Source of the DNA: an uncultured Acidimicrobiia bacterium
GTDB lineage: Bacteria; Actinomycetota; Acidimicrobiia; Spongiisociales; UBA5794
Reading direction: 5' to 3'
NCBI GenBank assembly: GCA_963812375.1
Contig: CAWEUW010000006.1
Span: 30,837 to 94,836 of the forward strand
DNA: 64,000 bases
Shown piece after piece: positions 13,885-60,829 of the stretch. A model generated the notes under the pieces. That model was not told the origin of the DNA. It ran no database searches and saw only the letters and a list, made by a program, of their open reading frames with translations. The number at the start of each line of letters is the position of its first letter. The first letter of the stretch is position 1. The translations under genes and the position numbers were made by a program.

Positions 13885-15076
13885 CTAGCCGCCGACGTCC
13901 TCGAAACGGTTGCTCTCCGGGACGACCGGTGACATCCCCGCCGCGGTAGGCGGCGGCGACCATCGAGTGGAACTGGTGCAGCGTGCTCTCCCACGGGCTC
14001 AGCGGCCCGGGGGCGAAGCCGCGGTTGCCGGCGCCCTTCTGGACGTGCTCGCAGGCGTTCCAGTCCTCCCGGTTGGTGATGTCCCAGAAGTCGACGGCGT
14101 AGGCGGGGTCGAACCCGTCCAACTCGAGCGACTCGGGGGCGAACAGCCAGTCGCACTCAACGAAGCTGCGCCCGGGGCCGAGCGGGACGATGCGGTGGGT
14201 CATCACGTAGTCGGGGTGGGCGCTGATGAGCAGGTTCGGCCACAGCCCGACATACACCACCTTGCGCGCCTGGTCGGCGTCGAGCCGCCGAAAGTTCCTT
14301 CCCTCCGATGCGCCGGTGAGCGACATGGTGACCGCATGGTCCTTGAGCTCCATCTCCCCGCCGCACCACAGGCCGCCGGGCTCGATGTCCCGCCCCGAGT
14401 CGGGCGGGCTGACCTGGCAGAGCTCGGGGTGGATGGTGTTGCAGTGGTAGCACTCGTGGTAATTCTCCACGATCAACTTCCAGTTGGCGGCCACCTCGTA
14501 TGCATGGCGCGCCACCATCGACAGGCGGCCCGGCTCGTAGGGGGCGAACAGCTCGGCAAGTCCGCCGTAGGTCTGCCCCAGCGGAGGCGCCTCCCCGGAC
14601 AGGTCGAGGAAGAGCCAGCCCATGAGGTCGCCCACGGCCACGGCGGAGAGCGGCCAGATCGCCGGGTCGAAGTCGACAGCCTGGGTGAGCGTGGGCGCCG
14701 ACCGCAGCGACCCGTCGAGTCGGTAGGACCACGAGTGGTAGGGGCACCGGACCAGCCGGGCGTCGATGGCCTCGCCGGGCTCGACCAGGGTGTGGCCCCG
14801 GTGGCGGCACACGTTGGAGAACCCGCGTACTGCGCCGTCGGCGTCCCTGGTGAGCAGTATCGACTCGGCGCCGTGGTCGACGCCTCGCACCTGGCCGGGG
14901 GCGAGCAGGTCGTCGGTGCGGCCCAGGCAGATCCAGGTCCGGTCGAAGATCTCGGAGCGCTCCCATTCGAAAACCTCGGCCGACGTGAACGCCGCCGCCG
15001 GCAGCGTCCGGCTGCTCCCGAACGGGCGCGCCAGTTCGGCGACATGCTGCTGGTCGATCGGTGCCGGTCGGCCCAC
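13885..15076 (-). CDS. Rieske [2Fe-2S] non-heme iron oxygenase, alpha subunit-like
   Basis: Rieske motif CRHRGHTL...CPYHSWSY and catalytic region ENYHECYHCNTIHPE. The raw ORF runs on antisense into vapC. A shift near 13940 gives ...MSPVVPESNRFEDVGG-TAG ending at 13885. Confidence 0.8.
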
Positions 15077-15183
15077 TCACCCACCTCCGAGGAAGGTCTC
15101 CTGGCGGGTCGAGCGTAGCGGCTCGGCTCCGACCTCCGGCACCGGGACCGGAGCCGCCGGCGGCACCCGGTACCCTTGCCGGC

Positions 15184-16107
15184 ATGGTCGCCACCCGGTC
15201 ATCGGAGACCACCGACACCGTGGTCCGGCGTCTCGCCACCGGGGTGCTGGTCTTCACCGTGCTGGTCATCCTGGGCGGGTCGGTGGTGCGGGCCACCGAG
15301 TCGGGCGCGGGCTGCGGGGACCAGTGGCCCCGTTGCGAGGGCCACATCATCCCCTGGTCGGCGGAGGGCGCCACCACGATCGAGTTCGCCCACCGGGCGT
15401 CGACCGCCATCCTCGGGATCCTGCTCGTCGCCCTCGTCGTCACCGTGGTCCGACGCACCGAGCGCGGGGCGCCGATCCGCCGTGCCCTCGCCTGGGCGGG
15501 GGCCTTCTTCGTCGCCGAGGTCGCCATCGGGGCGCTGCTGGTGCTCTTCGGCTGGGTCGACCAGGACGCCTCGATCGGGCGGGTGGTGGCCATGACCGTC
15601 CACCTGGCCAATACCTTCCTGCTGCTGGCCGCGCTCACCTTGGTGGTGTGGTTGGCGCGTGGGGGTGCCCCGCCGCGGGTCGACCTGGGGCGGACCGCCG
15701 ACCGGCTGCTCCTGGCCGGTGCCGTCGTCCTCCTCGTGGTCGCCGCTTCCGGCGCCCTCAACGCGCTGGCCGACACGCTGTTCCCTGCCGATGAGTCGTC
15801 AGGCTCCGGCCACTTCCTCGCCGACCTCCGGGTGCTGCACCCGATGATCGCCATCGTCGGAGGTGTGGCGGTGGTGCTCCTGTCCCGGGCCAGGGCGCTC
15901 GCCGGCGCCGCCGCCGAGCCGTGGCGACGCGCCATCGCGGTCATCGTGGCGATCCAGTTCGCCATGGGTGTCGTCAACATCGCCCTGCTGACGCCGGTGG
16001 AGACCCAGGTGCTGCACCTGCTCCTGGCCGATACGCTGTGGATCGTGTGGATCGTGTTCGGAGCCTCGGTGATCGCCGCCGAGCAGCTCGAGGCCCAGAA
16101 GTCATGA
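15184..16107 (+). CDS. ctaA: Heme A synthase (COX15/CtaA)
   Basis: Polytopic membrane protein with GCGDQWPRCEG and conserved His residues (FAHRAS, VHLAN, VLHPM, HLLLAD). ATG 15184 lies inside ORF 15061..16107. Confidence 0.85.
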   Translation: MVATRSSETTDTVVRRLATGVLVFTVLVILGGSVVRATESGAGCGDQWPRCEGHIIPWSAEGATTIEFAHRASTAILGILLVALVVTVVRRTERGAPIRRALAWAGAFFVAEVAIGALLVLFGWVDQDASIGRVVAMTVHLANTFLLLAALTLVVWLARGGAPPRVDLGRTADRLLLAGAVVLLVVAASGALNALADTLFPADESSGSGHFLADLRVLHPMIAIVGGVAVVLLSRARALAGAAAEPWRRAIAVIVAIQFAMGVVNIALLTPVETQVLHLLLADTLWIVWIVFGASVIAAEQLEAQKS

Positions 16108-16175
16108 GTGTGAGGGTTCGCCGGAGGCGGAGACTCGGCGGTTGGGGCTGGGGACCCCGAGAGCCATGAGTGAAG
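16108..16175 (+). repeat. Short copy of the dispersed 5'-leader repeat also found at 59405-59606
   Basis: GAGGGTTCGCCGGAGGCGGAGACTCGGCGGTTGGGGCTGGGGACCCCGAGAGCCATGAGTGAAG aligns at about 80% to the reverse complement of the 91-bp unit at 59425-59515, minus an internal deletion of about 25 nt. It fills the ctaA-ctaB spacer. Confidence 0.55.
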
Positions 16176-17068
16176 CCAGGATCACCGATCCTCGTGCCGT
16201 GGTCACCGCCGGTGACCGCGTCCGCGCCTACGTCGAGCTGACCAAGCCCCGCATCATCGAACTCCTCCTCATCACCACGGTGCCGGCGATGATCGTCGCC
16301 GCCGAGGGCTGGCCCGGGCTCGGGCTGATCGTGGCCACCCTGGTGGGCGGGACGCTGTCGGCCGCCGGGGCCAACACCCTCAACCAGGTGCTCGACCGTG
16401 ACATCGACCGGGTGATGAGGCGCACCGCCTCCCGGCCGTTGCCCACCGATCGGGTGACGCCGGGTCACGCCATGGTCTTCGGCGTGGCGTTGGGCATCGC
16501 CGGGTTCGCCTGGCTGTGGGCGACCACCAACCTGCTCGCCGCCCTCCTGTCCACCGCCGGGCTGGCGTTCTACGTGCTGGTCTACACCATGTGGCTGAAG
16601 CGGACCACCACCCAGAACATCGTGATCGGGGGAGCCGCCGGCGCCGTGCCCCCTCTCGTGGGCTGGGCGGCGGTGACCGGTTCGCTGGCCCTCCCCGCCT
16701 GGTTCATGTTCGCCATCGTCTTCTACTGGACCCCGCCGCACTTCTGGGCGCTGTCGCTCCGCTACCGCGACGACTACGCCGCCGCAGGGGTCCCGATGAT
16801 GCCGGTCGTGGTCGGCGTCGAACGAACCCTCGACCACATCGTCCGCTACAGCATGCTGGTCGCCGGAGTCTCCCTGCTCCCGTACACGGTGGGTGTCGTC
16901 GGGCTCTTCTATCTGTCGGTGGCGGTGGTGCTCGGGATTGCCCTGGTGGTCGCCGCGCTCCGCCTGCGCCGGCTGCCGTCCGAGGCCATGAGGTTCTTCG
17001 GCTGGACCAACCTCTACCTCGCCGGGATCTTCCTGGCGATGGCGGTCGATGTCCTCGTCTGGGCGTGA
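16166..17068 (+). CDS. ctaB: Protoheme IX farnesyltransferase (heme O synthase)
   Basis: UbiA family: NQVLDRDIDRVMRRTASRPLP and YWTPPHFWALS. ATG 16166, with alternative TTG 16142. Confidence 0.9.
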   Translation: MSEARITDPRAVVTAGDRVRAYVELTKPRIIELLLITTVPAMIVAAEGWPGLGLIVATLVGGTLSAAGANTLNQVLDRDIDRVMRRTASRPLPTDRVTPGHAMVFGVALGIAGFAWLWATTNLLAALLSTAGLAFYVLVYTMWLKRTTTQNIVIGGAAGAVPPLVGWAAVTGSLALPAWFMFAIVFYWTPPHFWALSLRYRDDYAAAGVPMMPVVVGVERTLDHIVRYSMLVAGVSLLPYTVGVVGLFYLSVAVVLGIALVVAALRLRRLPSEAMRFFGWTNLYLAGIFLAMAVDVLVWA

Positions 17069-58018: not shown

Positions 58019-59368
58019 TCAGCCGTCGGCGGCGTCAGGCGTCGGCCAGGTGATGACCAGGACGGTGACGTCGGAGTCGGTCGGGTTGGAGACCTCGCTG
58101 TCCGGGCCGAGGTCGATCACGGCGCCGGGCGCCAGTCGGGCCCTTTCGGACAGTGCCGTGCCCTCGACCACCACGCCGACGCCACCTTCGAAGCCGGCGG
58201 TGGACCCGGCGCGGAGAGTGTGAGCCGTGACCACCCCGTCCCCGATACGGGCCAGGATCTCGGACGTGCCCCACGGCTGGGCGGAGGTCGGCCCCTGGTC
58301 GGCTTCGATGCGGCGCCGCCGCCGGAGGTGTTCGACCAGCTGCTTGACGTCCTCGGCGCGGTCCTTGGCCGCCACCAGCACCGCATCCGGAGTCGTCACC
58401 GCCACCACGTCGGACAATCCGACCACGGCGAGTAGCCCCCCGTCGGCTCGCAGGTAGCTGCCGTCGACATCCTGGGCCACCACGTCGCCGACGATGACGT
58501 TGCCGCTGGCGTCCTGTATCGCCACGTCCATCAGCGACGCCCATGACCCCACGTCGCTCCATCCGGCGTCGAGCGGGACCACCACCGCCGACCGGGTGCG
58601 CTCCATGACGGCGTAGTCGATCGAGATCGACGGGGAGCGCGAGAACGCATCGCCGTCGAGGGCCAGTGACCCGTCCTCTTCGGTCACTGCCGCCGCCATG
58701 GCCGCCGAGGCCGCGGCGGCGACATCGGGCTCGAAGCGGGCCAGCTCGTCGAGGTAGCGAACGGCGGTGAACATGAACATGCCGCTGTTCCACAGGTGCT
58801 CGCCGTCGGTGACGAACCGTTCGGCGTCGGCGAGTTCCGGCTTCTCGACGAACTCGGCAACCGGGCTCAACCCGGTGGACCCCGGCGCCACCCGGATGTA
58901 GCCGTACCCCGTCGCCGGATGGGTGGGGACGACACCGAACGTGACCAGGGCACCTGTCAGCGCCGCCTCGGCTCCGGCGGCCACCGCCTCGGCGAAGGCG
59001 ACATGGTCGCGGAGCACGTGGTCGGCGGGCATCACGAGCATCACCGAACCCGGGTCGATGGCGAGGGCGGCAACGGCCACCGCGGGCGCGGTGTTGCGGC
59101 CCACCGGTTCGATGATCACCCGCCCGTCGCCATGGCCTGCCGCCTCCATCTCGTGGCGGCACGACGACGCCTGCACCTCGCTGCACACCACAACGGCCGA
59201 CCGATGGCCGGGGATGCCGGCCACCCGGTCGAGTGTGGCGCGCAGCATCGTGTGGTCGTCGACCAGGTTGAGGAGCTGTTTCGGGGTGTCCGTCCGCGAG
59301 GCGGGCCACAATCGGGTTCCCGAGCCACCGGAGAGGATCACCGGGACGATGACGGGGCCGTCGTGCAC
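58019..59368 (-). CDS. manC: Mannose-1-phosphate guanylyltransferase with C-terminal cupin (ManC/CpsB type)
   Basis: VILSGGSGTRLWP, GRNTAPAV, MPADH, EKP, LWNSGMFMF, and a cupin-like tail. The start is set at GTG 59366-59368 (VHDGPVIV). The raw ORF extends upstream through the 91-bp repeats, which I consider non-coding. Confidence 0.8.
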   Translation of the reverse strand: MHDGPVIVPVILSGGSGTRLWPASRTDTPKQLLNLVDDHTMLRATLDRVAGIPGHRSAVVVCSEVQASSCRHEMEAAGHGDGRVIIEPVGRNTAPAVAVAALAIDPGSVMLVMPADHVLRDHVAFAEAVAAGAEAALTGALVTFGVVPTHPATGYGYIRVAPGSTGLSPVAEFVEKPELADAERFVTDGEHLWNSGMFMFTAVRYLDELARFEPDVAAAASAAMAAAVTEEDGSLALDGDAFSRSPSISIDYAVMERTRSAVVVPLDAGWSDVGSWASLMDVAIQDASGNVIVGDVVAQDVDGSYLRADGGLLAVVGLSDVVAVTTPDAVLVAAKDRAEDVKQLVEHLRRRRRIEADQGPTSAQPWGTSEILARIGDGVVTAHTLRAGSTAGFEGGVGVVVEGTALSERARLAPGAVIDLGPDSEVSNPTDSDVTVLVITWPTPDAADG

Positions 59369-59404
59369 CCGGACAATGTAACGGGCCAGGACCGGCCCCC
59401 TAGT

Positions 59405-59606
59405 GGTGGCCTCTGCGCTCTGTTCACATGGCTCTTCGGCTGACGCCTCATCGCTGTGCGATGGGGGACCCCCAACCCCCATCGCCCGAGCCTCCGCCTG
59501 CGGCGTAGCCTCTGTCACATGGCTCTTCGGCTGACGCCTCATCGCGGTGCGATGGGGGACCCCCAACCCCCATCGCCGAGTCTCCGCCTGGCGGCGTAGC
59601 CTCTGT
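59405..59606. repeat. Tandem 91-bp repeat (two full copies plus a partial), each with a 10-bp G/C hairpin
   Basis: Copy 1 spans 59425-59515 and copy 2 spans 59516-59606, differing by two substitutions and two 1-nt indels. Hairpins GCGATGGGGG-N8-CCCCCATCGC lie at 59458-59485 and 59549-59576. A partial unit lies at 59405-59424. Confidence 0.9.
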
Positions 59607-60829
59607 GCTCAACCCTGCTGCCGTCCGCTCCCGCTTCCCCGCCCTGGCCCGGACTCTCGGCGGCGTCCCCGTGGTCTATGCCGACGGTCCCGGCGGCACC
59701 CAGGTGGTGGACACGGCGATCGAGGCCGTCGCCGGGTTCATGGCCGGTGGCGGGTCCAACCTCGGGGGCCCGTTCGTCACTAGCGAGGAGACCCAGGCAG
59801 TGGTCGATTCCGCCCGAGCCGCCGCCGCCGACCTGTTCGGAGCGGAGCGGCCCGACGAGATCGTCTTCGGGCAGAACATGACGTCACTCACGCTCGCCCT
59901 GGGGAGGGCACTGGCCCGCACCTGGCGACCCGGCGACGAGATCATCTGCACCACTCTCGATCACGACGCCAACGTCTCGTCGTGGATGCAGGCGGCCGCC
60001 GAAGCAGATGCCACCGTCCGCCTCGTCGACTTCGACCCTCGAGACGGCCGGCTCGACCCCGAGGCGGTAGCGGCCGCCCTCACCGACCGCACCCGGCTGG
60101 TGGCGGTCACTCACGCCTCCAACGCCATCGGCACCGTGGTCGACGTCGCCTCCGTGGTCGAGGCCGCCCACTCGGTGGGGGCCCTCGCCTTCGTCGATGC
60201 GGTGCACTACGCCCCCCATGGGCTCATCGACGTCGTCACCACCGGTTGCGACTTCCTCGCCGCGTCGGCGTACAAGTTCTTCGGGCCACACACCGGGATC
60301 ATGTACGGGCGGGCAGAGCTGCTGGCCGGGCTCGACGCGGTCGAAGATCAGGCCGGCCCCGAGCGAGGCCCCGGGCAAGTGGGAGAGCGGCACCCAGAGC
60401 TTCGAGAGCCTGGCCGGGGTAGCCGCCGCCGTCGACTACCTCGCCTCATTGGGCGAGGGGGTTGACCGGCGCTCCCGGATCCGCTCCGCCATGGGCCTCA
60501 TCGGCACGCACGAGGCGGGGCTTTCCCGCCGCTTCCTCGACGGGGTCGTTCGGCAGCCGTCGGTGACCGTGCACGGGGTGCCGGACGTCGAGGGCCGCAC
60601 CCCCACCTTCGCCGTCGCGGTGGACGGGAAGCACCCCCGCCGGGTCGCCGAGAGACTCGGCCGGGCCGGGGTGTTCGTGTGGGACGGCCACTACTACGCC
60701 CTCGAGGTGATGCGCCGCCTCGGCGTGCTCGACACCGGCGGCCTGGTGCGGATCGGGTTCGTCCACTACAACACGCTCGAAGAGGTCGACCGGGTGGTCG
60801 ACGCCTTGGACGCGCTTCAGGCCAGATAG
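59605..60829 (+). CDS. Class V aminotransferase / cysteine-desulfurase-like PLP enzyme
   Basis: GTG 59605. VTHASNAIGTV and SAYKFFGPH (PLP-Lys region). The C-half is in ORF 60197..60829 after a break near 60340. Confidence 0.8.

Follow-up and report, generated by a model that had tools for sequence, protein, structure and literature searches.

The window analyzed here, a 64,000-nt stretch (C6:30837-94836) of a 3.03 Mb metagenome-assembled genome of an uncultured Acidimicrobiia bacterium with 12 contigs and 70% G+C (G000), carries ctaA and ctaB separated by a 58-nt spacer, and the question raised by this locus is what that spacer is and how ctaB comes to be translated downstream of it. The initial annotation had viewed it as a truncated copy of a '91-bp manC leader repeat' that supplies the ctaB start codon, and as a sign of a mobile or conserved 5'-leader module.

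The spacer between ctaA and ctaB

The spacer sequence is as first quoted, and the junction comprises the following features:

15061..16107, + strand: ctaA (heme A synthase, COX15/CtaA; ORF list, Pfam PF02628, E=3e-28); start uncertain, GTG 15061 or later; stop TGA at 16105-16107
16103..16110, + strand: left copy of the 8-nt direct repeat CATGAGTG (sequence)
16104..16169, + strand: 21-codon bridging ORF, MSVRVRRRRRLGGWGWGPREP and stop (translation)
16111..16164, + strand: repeat-derived insert (nhmmer match, alignment to C8:600666, decoy searches)
16165..16172, + strand: right copy of CATGAGTG (sequence)
16166..17068, + strand: ctaB (protoheme IX farnesyltransferase, UbiA family; Pfam PF01040, E=5e-66)

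The layout is aagt-CATGAGTG-[54 nt]-CATGAGTG-aagcc, and deleting the insert together with one CATGAGTG gives back …AAGTCATGAGTGAAGCC…, the state found in relatives. The left CATGAGTG contains the ctaA stop TGA (16105-07) and an ATG (16104-06) that overlaps this stop as ATGA and opens the bridging ORF, while the right one contains the ctaB start ATG (16166-68), overlapped in the same manner by the bridging-ORF stop TGA (16167-69). The insert consists of a head and first hairpin, GAGGGTTCGCCGGAGGCGG, a GACTCGG linker, the 5' arm and loop of a central hairpin, GCGGTTGGGGCTGGGGACCCC, and a tail remnant, GAGAGC. As the N-terminus of ctaB (MSE[A/L]RITDPR) is conserved in relatives, ATG 16166 is its true start; no Shine-Dalgarno-like sequence was seen at a usable distance before it.

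A profile HMM built from 40 near-full-length or full-length genomic copies of the repeat and run with nhmmer against the whole ~3 Mb genome matches the spacer at 16112-16158 (C6:46948-46994; E=5e-4, 21.6 bits, model positions 3-50). Decoy searches, run on the genome reversed and on three locally shuffled versions of it, scored at most 9.9 bits, and the spacer is identical at 31/31 positions to a copy at C8:600681-600711 (blastn E=4.5e-11); the similarity is therefore real and stands well clear of a shuffled background. Hence, the spacer is indeed a truncated copy of the 91-bp unit, and it ends in GAGCCATG, as do the two copies near manC. The loss is larger than the roughly 25 internal nucleotides first estimated: relative to the closest copy, C8:600666, it lacks 29-30 nt, so that hairpin 3 is gone along with the 3' arm of the central stem, and its period is 62 nt versus 92 in full units. 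The head hexamer TAGCCT has been lost as well, with GAACCC in its place.

The proposal that the copy supplies the ctaB start codon, by way of one extra A in its tail, does not hold. CCATGA is the usual tail of the repeat family, and the ATG pre-dates the insertion, as a 4-nt overlap of the ctaA stop and the ctaB start (ATGA or GTGA) is seen in 16 of the 17 relatives with a readable junction. G001 and G002, from the same genus, show ggcATGAgc with no spacer, and the insert is present only in G000, G004 (differing from G000 by one substitution), and G003 (whose noisy assembly shows a more decayed version). With the overlap this widespread and the insert restricted to three species, we take the overlap to be ancestral and the spacer to be an insertion common to these species, with a ctaB ATG that by this comparison is ancestral rather than newly supplied by the repeat. 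Since CCATGAG is the usual family tail, the duplicated stretch is one common to target and element and not a newly made start codon; the 8-nt repeat overlaps this tail consensus, so that target-site duplication and microhomology are indistinguishable. The subtype of the cta copy, GGTTGGGG…CCCCAACC, predominates in G001 and G002 and accounts for a minority of copies in G000, which fits an old insertion event. We accordingly read the spacer as a worn, shortened insertion of a mobile repeat at a stop/start overlap, similar in this respect to the mycobacterial interspersed units (MIRUs) considered below.

Translation across the junction

The account that we consider highly probable is that an old, internally deleted mobile repeat of ~92 nt was inserted at the ctaA/ctaB overlap and that coupling was kept via the bridging ORF. 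Within it, the sequences themselves show that the spacer belongs to the family and was inserted, that empty sites exist, and that the direct repeat and the ORFs are arranged as described; that the ctaA/mini-ORF/ctaB coupling is used, and that coupling is the reason the insertion was tolerated, we infer from this arrangement. The element entered in sense, precisely at the 4-nt overlap of the ancestral junction, …TCATGAGTGAAG…, using the short stretch CATGAG(TG) common to the target and the element tail; with this stretch now on both flanks, the ctaA stop and the ctaB start both survived. The element is open in the frame that ATG 16104 sets, and as the periods of 62 nt (cta copy) and 92 nt (full units) are both of the form 3k+2, the TGA of the downstream ATGA falls in frame with the upstream ATG, a relation that the 30-nt deletion preserved. 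Ribosomes ending ctaA could then restart on the 21-codon ORF, whose TGA overlaps the ctaB ATG, and translational coupling would be restored from ctaA through the mini-ORF to ctaB, as proposed for MIRUs. The bridging ORF is intact in the sister genome G004 (ending in GPQEP before its stop) despite the substitution inside it. At another locus of G004 (L047), an unrelated gene has a sense insertion of the repeat at its start codon, and the corresponding site is empty in G000 (…CCATGAGT^ATGG…); this insertion duplicates ATGAG and yields a 31-codon ORF whose TGA overlaps the ATG of that gene. Such cases are rare, however: of the roughly 70 loci examined, just 2 have the repeat inserted in sense at a start codon.

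The best-surviving alternative, which we nevertheless regard as improbable, is that the spacer is the neutral scar of a plain selfish repeat: ctaB would initiate independently, the bridging ORF and the 3k+2 period would be coincidental, and the clustering of the family at gene starts would mark the places where insertions happen or are tolerated. The chance component is substantial for both features, as an open 21-codon frame is not unlikely in 70% G+C DNA and a 3k+2 period has prior odds of ~1 in 3. Moreover, the mini-ORFs are not conserved across the family, in which 1-nt indels are common and an antisense ATG..TAG frame persists in only ~23 of 52 distinct copies; the RNA fold of the cta spacer is no better than that of shuffled sequence (z=-0.27); and the copy is decayed, with its 30-nt deletion and lost head hexamer. 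Against independent initiation, the ancestral junction was itself coupled through its stop/start overlap, and the lack of a usable Shine-Dalgarno-like sequence before ATG 16166 makes some form of coupling the simplest route to ctaB translation. A scar would also have to account for a 30-nt deletion that kept the frame, for the retention of the ORF in G004, and for the independent recurrence of the same ATGA-ATGA geometry at L047.

Fold, distribution, and movement of the repeat family

A BLAST search with one unit recovers nearly complete copies by the dozen, spread over 10 of the 12 contigs of G000, and nhmmer finds 57 matches at 44 loci, all of them intergenic, with arrays of 2-4 units. All five genomes of the genus (G000-G004) carry the repeat, and more divergent forms are found in seven further genomes of the family and order, for a total of 12 out of 61 relatives. 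The unit reads (A/C)GAGGCTACGCC-GTCA-GGCGGAG-ACTCG-GCGATGGGGG-CTGGGGGT-CCCCCATCGC-ACCGCGATGAG in its 5' portion, with ACCGCGATGAG followed by GC(G/C)-GTCA-G(C/G)C-GAAGAGCCATGA in its 3' portion. We term its two ends the head (GAGGCTAC) and the tail (GAGCCATG, within the tail end GAAGAGCCATGA); partial heads similar to that seen at the manC array (below) follow most copies in the genome. Exceptions among the subtypes include a head, GGCTCC, without TA (G001-type) and a tail without ATG (G036-type).

An alignment of 77 non-redundant units from G000, G004, G001, G036, and G041 reveals three hairpins maintained by compensatory changes. A search for such changes had been proposed in the initial annotation, and they are found at five pairs of the central stem (AU to GC in 16 units, GC to UA/UG, CG to UA, GC to CG, and UA to GC), which has at least five fully complementary versions, whereas hairpin 3 switches between GGC…GCC in 41 units and GCC…GGC in 33. 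The fold is therefore conserved, at the level of either DNA or RNA. The central loop, G5-(C/T)T-G5-T-C5 (59450-59475 and 59541-59566 in the window), is conserved even where the stems of the subtypes differ.

Several derived forms are also seen. Mini-units of ~36 nt (GAGGCTACGCCGTCAGGCGAAGAGCCATGA) lie beside full units at C8:272861-272899, C8:107346-107380, C11:216450-216500, C7:308950-309004, and C8:525866-525905; they resemble full units shortened by deletion between a pair of internal direct repeats, GCCGTCAGGCG, and retain both head and tail at the same distance from start codons as full units. At five loci of G001 (L051, L054, L055, L057, and L058), the tail is followed by an extra module, CAACAAC(A/G)GCGCAAGAGCGAGCGCCTATCCGCGCTCGCTC, with a 10-bp hairpin, a sign that the element of that species may be a longer composite. 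The only locus with two partial units facing each other in inverted orientation (+ then -) is C7:622060-622172 of G000.

The copies that gave the repeat its first name lie in the window between manC (- strand) and a class-V aminotransferase gene (+ strand):

59366..59380, - strand: manC start architecture, TACATT (59380-59375), 6-nt spacer, GTG (59368-59366) (sequence, spacing profile)
59400..59424, - strand: partial extra head ACAGAGCGCAGAGGCCAC, just beyond the array tail
59425..59606, - strand: two full tandem units of the main subtype (TRF; nhmmer C6:90264-90349 and 90355-90440)
59597..59602, + strand: head hexamer TAGCCT, on the aminotransferase strand (sequence)

TRF delimits the tandem array of two 91-nt units, 94% alike, at 59418-59606, with its tail, …GAGCCATG, toward manC and its head, GAGGCTAC…, abutting the aminotransferase gene. 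The product of manC is supported by Pfam matches, and its TACATT-N6-GTG has the layout of a native leaderless-type start (see below), 40 nt beyond the repeat. With its own start architecture there, the manC mRNA is probably leaderless and the array probably lies upstream of its promoter, outside any leader, so that the label 'manC leader repeat' is a misnomer for what is a dispersed repeat with 44 loci. The aminotransferase gene (59605-60829) appears to be broken into two frames that overlap, 59605-60465 and 60449-60829; the assembly is 65% complete by marker genes, and frameshift errors or pseudogenes may be frequent in it.

These observations bear on a second alternative, namely that the unit is a conserved cis-regulatory RNA, leader- or riboswitch-like, common to ctaB and manC. 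The hairpins kept by compensatory changes would suit it, as would the better-than-shuffled folding of full units (z = -2.1 and -2.8) and the concentration of G·U wobbles on the strand ending in CCAUG. Yet, its 57 copies lie beside unrelated genes in both orientations, sites filled in one sister genome are empty in another, the element is missing at the cta junction of 16 of the 17 relatives, manC has its own start beyond the array, and the cta copy lacks half of the central hairpin; the distribution has already largely refuted this explanation, which we consider very improbable. In an Rfam scan of the repeat, the best matches were chrB-a (17.9 bits; gathering score 43.9) and DUF805b (14.4; 35.6), the best E being 0.22, and with nothing near threshold we set aside a riboswitch, leader RNA, or ribozyme.

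Three further candidates were considered for parts of the unit and rejected. The tail segment GCGAUGAG-GC GUCA GC-CGAAGAG (59540-59565, and in all full units) resembles the enzyme strand of the hammerhead ribozyme, which reads CUGAUGAG-stem II-CGAAAC. This GAUGAG-hairpin-CGAAG look-alike differs from the hammerhead core at C3, U4, and A15.1, three invariant positions, and has no covariance-model match. An antisense 26-codon ATG…TAG mini-gene, MALRLTPHRGAMGDPQPPSPSLRLTA, survives in only ~23 of 52 distinct copies, again on account of the common 1-nt indels, and is not a conserved peptide. Finally, the central hairpin is not followed by a U-tract on either strand, as an intrinsic terminator would be.

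Comparison of G000 with G004, in which the flanks of the repeat are ~95% identical, shows that of 25 distinct G004 loci, 9 are empty or hold a solo head in G000 (solo heads occur, e.g., at L045) and 6 differ in copy number. In clean filled/empty pairs, the insert is 91-92 nt long and bounded by 3-8 nt matching the element's own tail-head junction; in the four clean pairs, the shared stretches are CAG (L028), GAA (L041), GAGG (L027), and ATGAG(T/C) (L047). The repeat is, on this comparative evidence, mobile, or recently gained and lost, within the genus. The mobile part of the proposed 'mobile or conserved 5'-leader module' thus stands, as does a non-random placement, and the conserved leader role does not.

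As for the mode of movement, the junction repeats of 3-8 nt in the four clean pairs do not constitute a fixed-length target duplication, and of the ends, GAGGCTACGCC… and …GAAGAGCCATG, only ~4 nt (GGCT/AGCC) are inverted; lacking real terminal inverted repeats and with variable junction repeats, the element is not a classical MITE. The Y1/RAYT transposase (PF01797) is absent from all 12 repeat-bearing genomes (G000-G005, G036, G041, G044, G025, G026, and G057), its only match being in G017, a genome without the repeat, which excludes a REP/REPIN-RAYT pair with this cognate enzyme. A replication-strand bias of the IS200/IS605 type was not apparent by eye, as copies of both orientations are interspersed throughout the single-contig chromosome of G004. 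No mobilizing enzyme was identified for the family. The remaining alternative, that local duplication, slippage, or gene conversion from another locus produced the spacer, could appeal to the unequal recombination indicated by varying array copy numbers and solo heads and to the short, variable flanking repeats, but it is hardly credible for a single-copy site whose nearest companion in the window is 43 kb away, with the subtype typical of G001 and G002 that points to an old insertion, and alongside clean filled/empty pairs at many unrelated sites (L028, L041, and L047).

Placement at gene starts and comparison with known repeats

Our gene finder is crude (coding fraction 0.76) and the assembly incomplete, with some frames possibly broken; hence, the strand and frame of the neighbors at each locus were called from local six-frame codon scores, by which single start assignments may be wrong. 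On this basis, the tail-side neighbor reads away from the element in 22 of the 44 loci of G000 and toward it in the other 22. Where it reads away, starts lie 16-90 nt off and the frame of the tail ATG agrees with that of the coding region downstream in ~6 of 22 cases, i.e., at the level of chance, which rules out the tail ATG as a general donor of start codons; the rule of a uniform orientation with this ATG facing the gene, drawn from the copies in the window, fails genome-wide. The head, by contrast, is turned toward the start of an opposite-strand gene at 32 of the 44 loci, with a spacing of 5-9 nt in ~20. The non-random end is thus the head. In G004, 21 of 25 head-side neighbors read away, with the hexamer at 6-8 nt in 9 of the 25. 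There is, accordingly, a strict polarity toward start codons, mostly opposite in sense to the cta copy. The spacers between the hexamer TAG[CT]CT and the start are distributed as 5 nt in one case, 6 in seven, 7 in four, 8 in five to six, and 9 in two to three, with a mode of 6; at five of these loci, the proximal head is that of a 36-nt mini-unit. GTG accounts for ~35% of the head-adjacent starts versus 30% of native ones, a similarity that speaks for real starts and against remnants of tails.

This spacing recalls leaderless promoters. Leaderless mRNAs of Actinobacteria have a TANNNT -10 element 7-12 bp from the transcription start and no -35, and new TANNNT motifs often create new start sites in these bacteria (PMC3898074). 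In a profile of 2,211 crude gene starts of G000 with the repeats masked, TANNNT is enriched 30-40-fold upstream of starts, at 6 nt (4.0%), 7 nt (2.3%), and 8 nt (1.3%), versus ~0.1% elsewhere; it is found 6-8 nt upstream of at least 9% of genes despite the crude start calls, pointing to a large leaderless transcriptome. The favored native hexamer is TAG(C/G)CT after GG, and TAGCCT is the commonest predicted native -10 hexamer (14 of 186 sites), occurring also in contexts free of the element. The head places a TANNNT at the native distance in ~20 of the 44 loci of G000 and 9 of the 25 of G004, a suggestive geometry under which its TAGCCT would be a predicted portable -10 promoter for leaderless genes. 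Some empty alleles have hexamers of their own at the same place: TAACCT-N6-GTG (L027), TACGCT-N8-ATG (L032), and TACTCT-N8-ATG (L047).

The tail-head junction, …GCCATGAGCACAGAGGCTAC, reads on the other strand as GTAGCCTCTGTGCTCATGG, i.e., TAGCCT-N8-ATG. The undisturbed ctaA-ctaB junction of G017 (L011), CGCATGAGCACCGC, has 9 nt, CATGAGCAC, in common with the tail-head junction CCATGAGCACAG of the repeat, by which likeness the element junction closely resembles an ordinary ATGA-coupled gene start. Taken together, we tentatively raise the possibility, which we still hold to be doubtful, that the repeat is a mobile mimic of a leaderless gene start, integrating by short homology in either direction and harmless both ways. 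Head-first, a gene would receive a fresh TAGCCT -10 at the native spacing of 6-8 nt; tail-first, the open frame and the palindromic CATG would provide an ATGA-coupled bridging ORF, as at ctaA-ctaB. Counting against such mimicry are the G001-type head without TA and the G036-type tail without ATG, the many recent insertions 39-77 nt from starts, and the array in the window, whose TAGCCT is only 2 nt from the aminotransferase GTG (59605), atypical relative to the 5-9 nt seen elsewhere.

In its behavior, the family is closest to the MIRUs (Supply et al. 1997), which the summaries drawn on here (PMC12548453, PMC3184786) characterize as G+C-rich actinobacterial units of 40-100 bp with internal inverted repeats, occurring in tens of dispersed and often tandem copies. 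The family described here agrees in unit size, in copy number (57 matches at 44 loci, arrays of 2-4), in G+C-richness, and in its internal inverted repeats. Empty and filled sites with short direct repeats are described for MIRUs (PMC3184786); here, the cta junction is empty in relatives, nine further sites filled in G004 are empty or hold a solo head in G000, and short direct repeats flank the cta insert and those of the four clean pairs. MIRUs are further summarized as inserting at start codons inside operons, with an internal ORF that shares 4 nt with the stop before it and 4 nt with the start after it; such overlaps are seen here at the cta copy and L047 only and are not general in the family. 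The two differ in that most copies here sit head-first a few nucleotides upstream of starts on the other strand and not in sense orientation within operons, that the internal ORFs here are not conserved across copies, and that the 3-8-nt flanks here match the element's own tail-head junction, whereas the summaries report a fixed tetranucleotide repeat for MIRUs. We therefore liken the family to MIRUs by how it behaves, and not as a homologous member.

Other small repeats offer partial parallels. Like REP/REPIN elements, the family consists of numerous short palindromes, G+C-rich and intergenic, whose hairpins are maintained by compensatory change; it differs in having three hairpins and a strong polarity toward gene starts. 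REPs lie mostly downstream of genes. For the head-end TAGCCT, the closest analogues would be promoter-bearing repeats such as the Correia and REP2 repeats of Neisseria and the IR of Borrelia, which are small, structured, dispersed, and often 5' of genes, with promoter-like hexamers, an ATG being present as well in REP2 and the Borrelia IR (PMC3184786). Correia elements, however, possess terminal inverted repeats and duplicate a TA target, and REP2 brings a ribosome-binding site (PMC3184786), whereas the family here has no such site and its geometry fits leaderless starts. Finally, like the BoxC/PIT/TMECO repeats, it is intergenic and dispersed, with three consecutive homopurine/homopyrimidine blocks (Holder et al. 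2015, PMC4666352). The TMECO consensus, CCCTCNCCC-N3-6-GGGNGAGGG-N3-GGGNGAGGG, has 9-nt blocks in the order y-r-r (PMC4666352), as against 5-nt blocks in the order r-r-y inside a 10-bp hairpin here; this consensus does not fit, and we treat the similarity to these triplex-type repeats as a resemblance only.

For annotation, spacers of this kind are not to be taken as gene-specific leaders, and the start of ctaB is fixed at 16166. How MIRU-type repeats move, and how they are tolerated at start codons, is a question standing since 1997, and the present family offers a second example of such behavior from another actinobacterial class, its kinship to MIRUs being judged by behavior alone. Its clean filled/empty sister sites, several subtypes, and polarity toward start codons are substrates for finding the insertion rule and the enzyme involved. 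If the head hexamer works as a -10 element, these repeats would rewire the promoters of leaderless genes genome-wide. If the repeat is indeed a mimic of leaderless gene starts, it would represent a previously undescribed class of mobile DNA specialized on them, and its many filled and empty sites could make the problem of MIRU mobility tractable.
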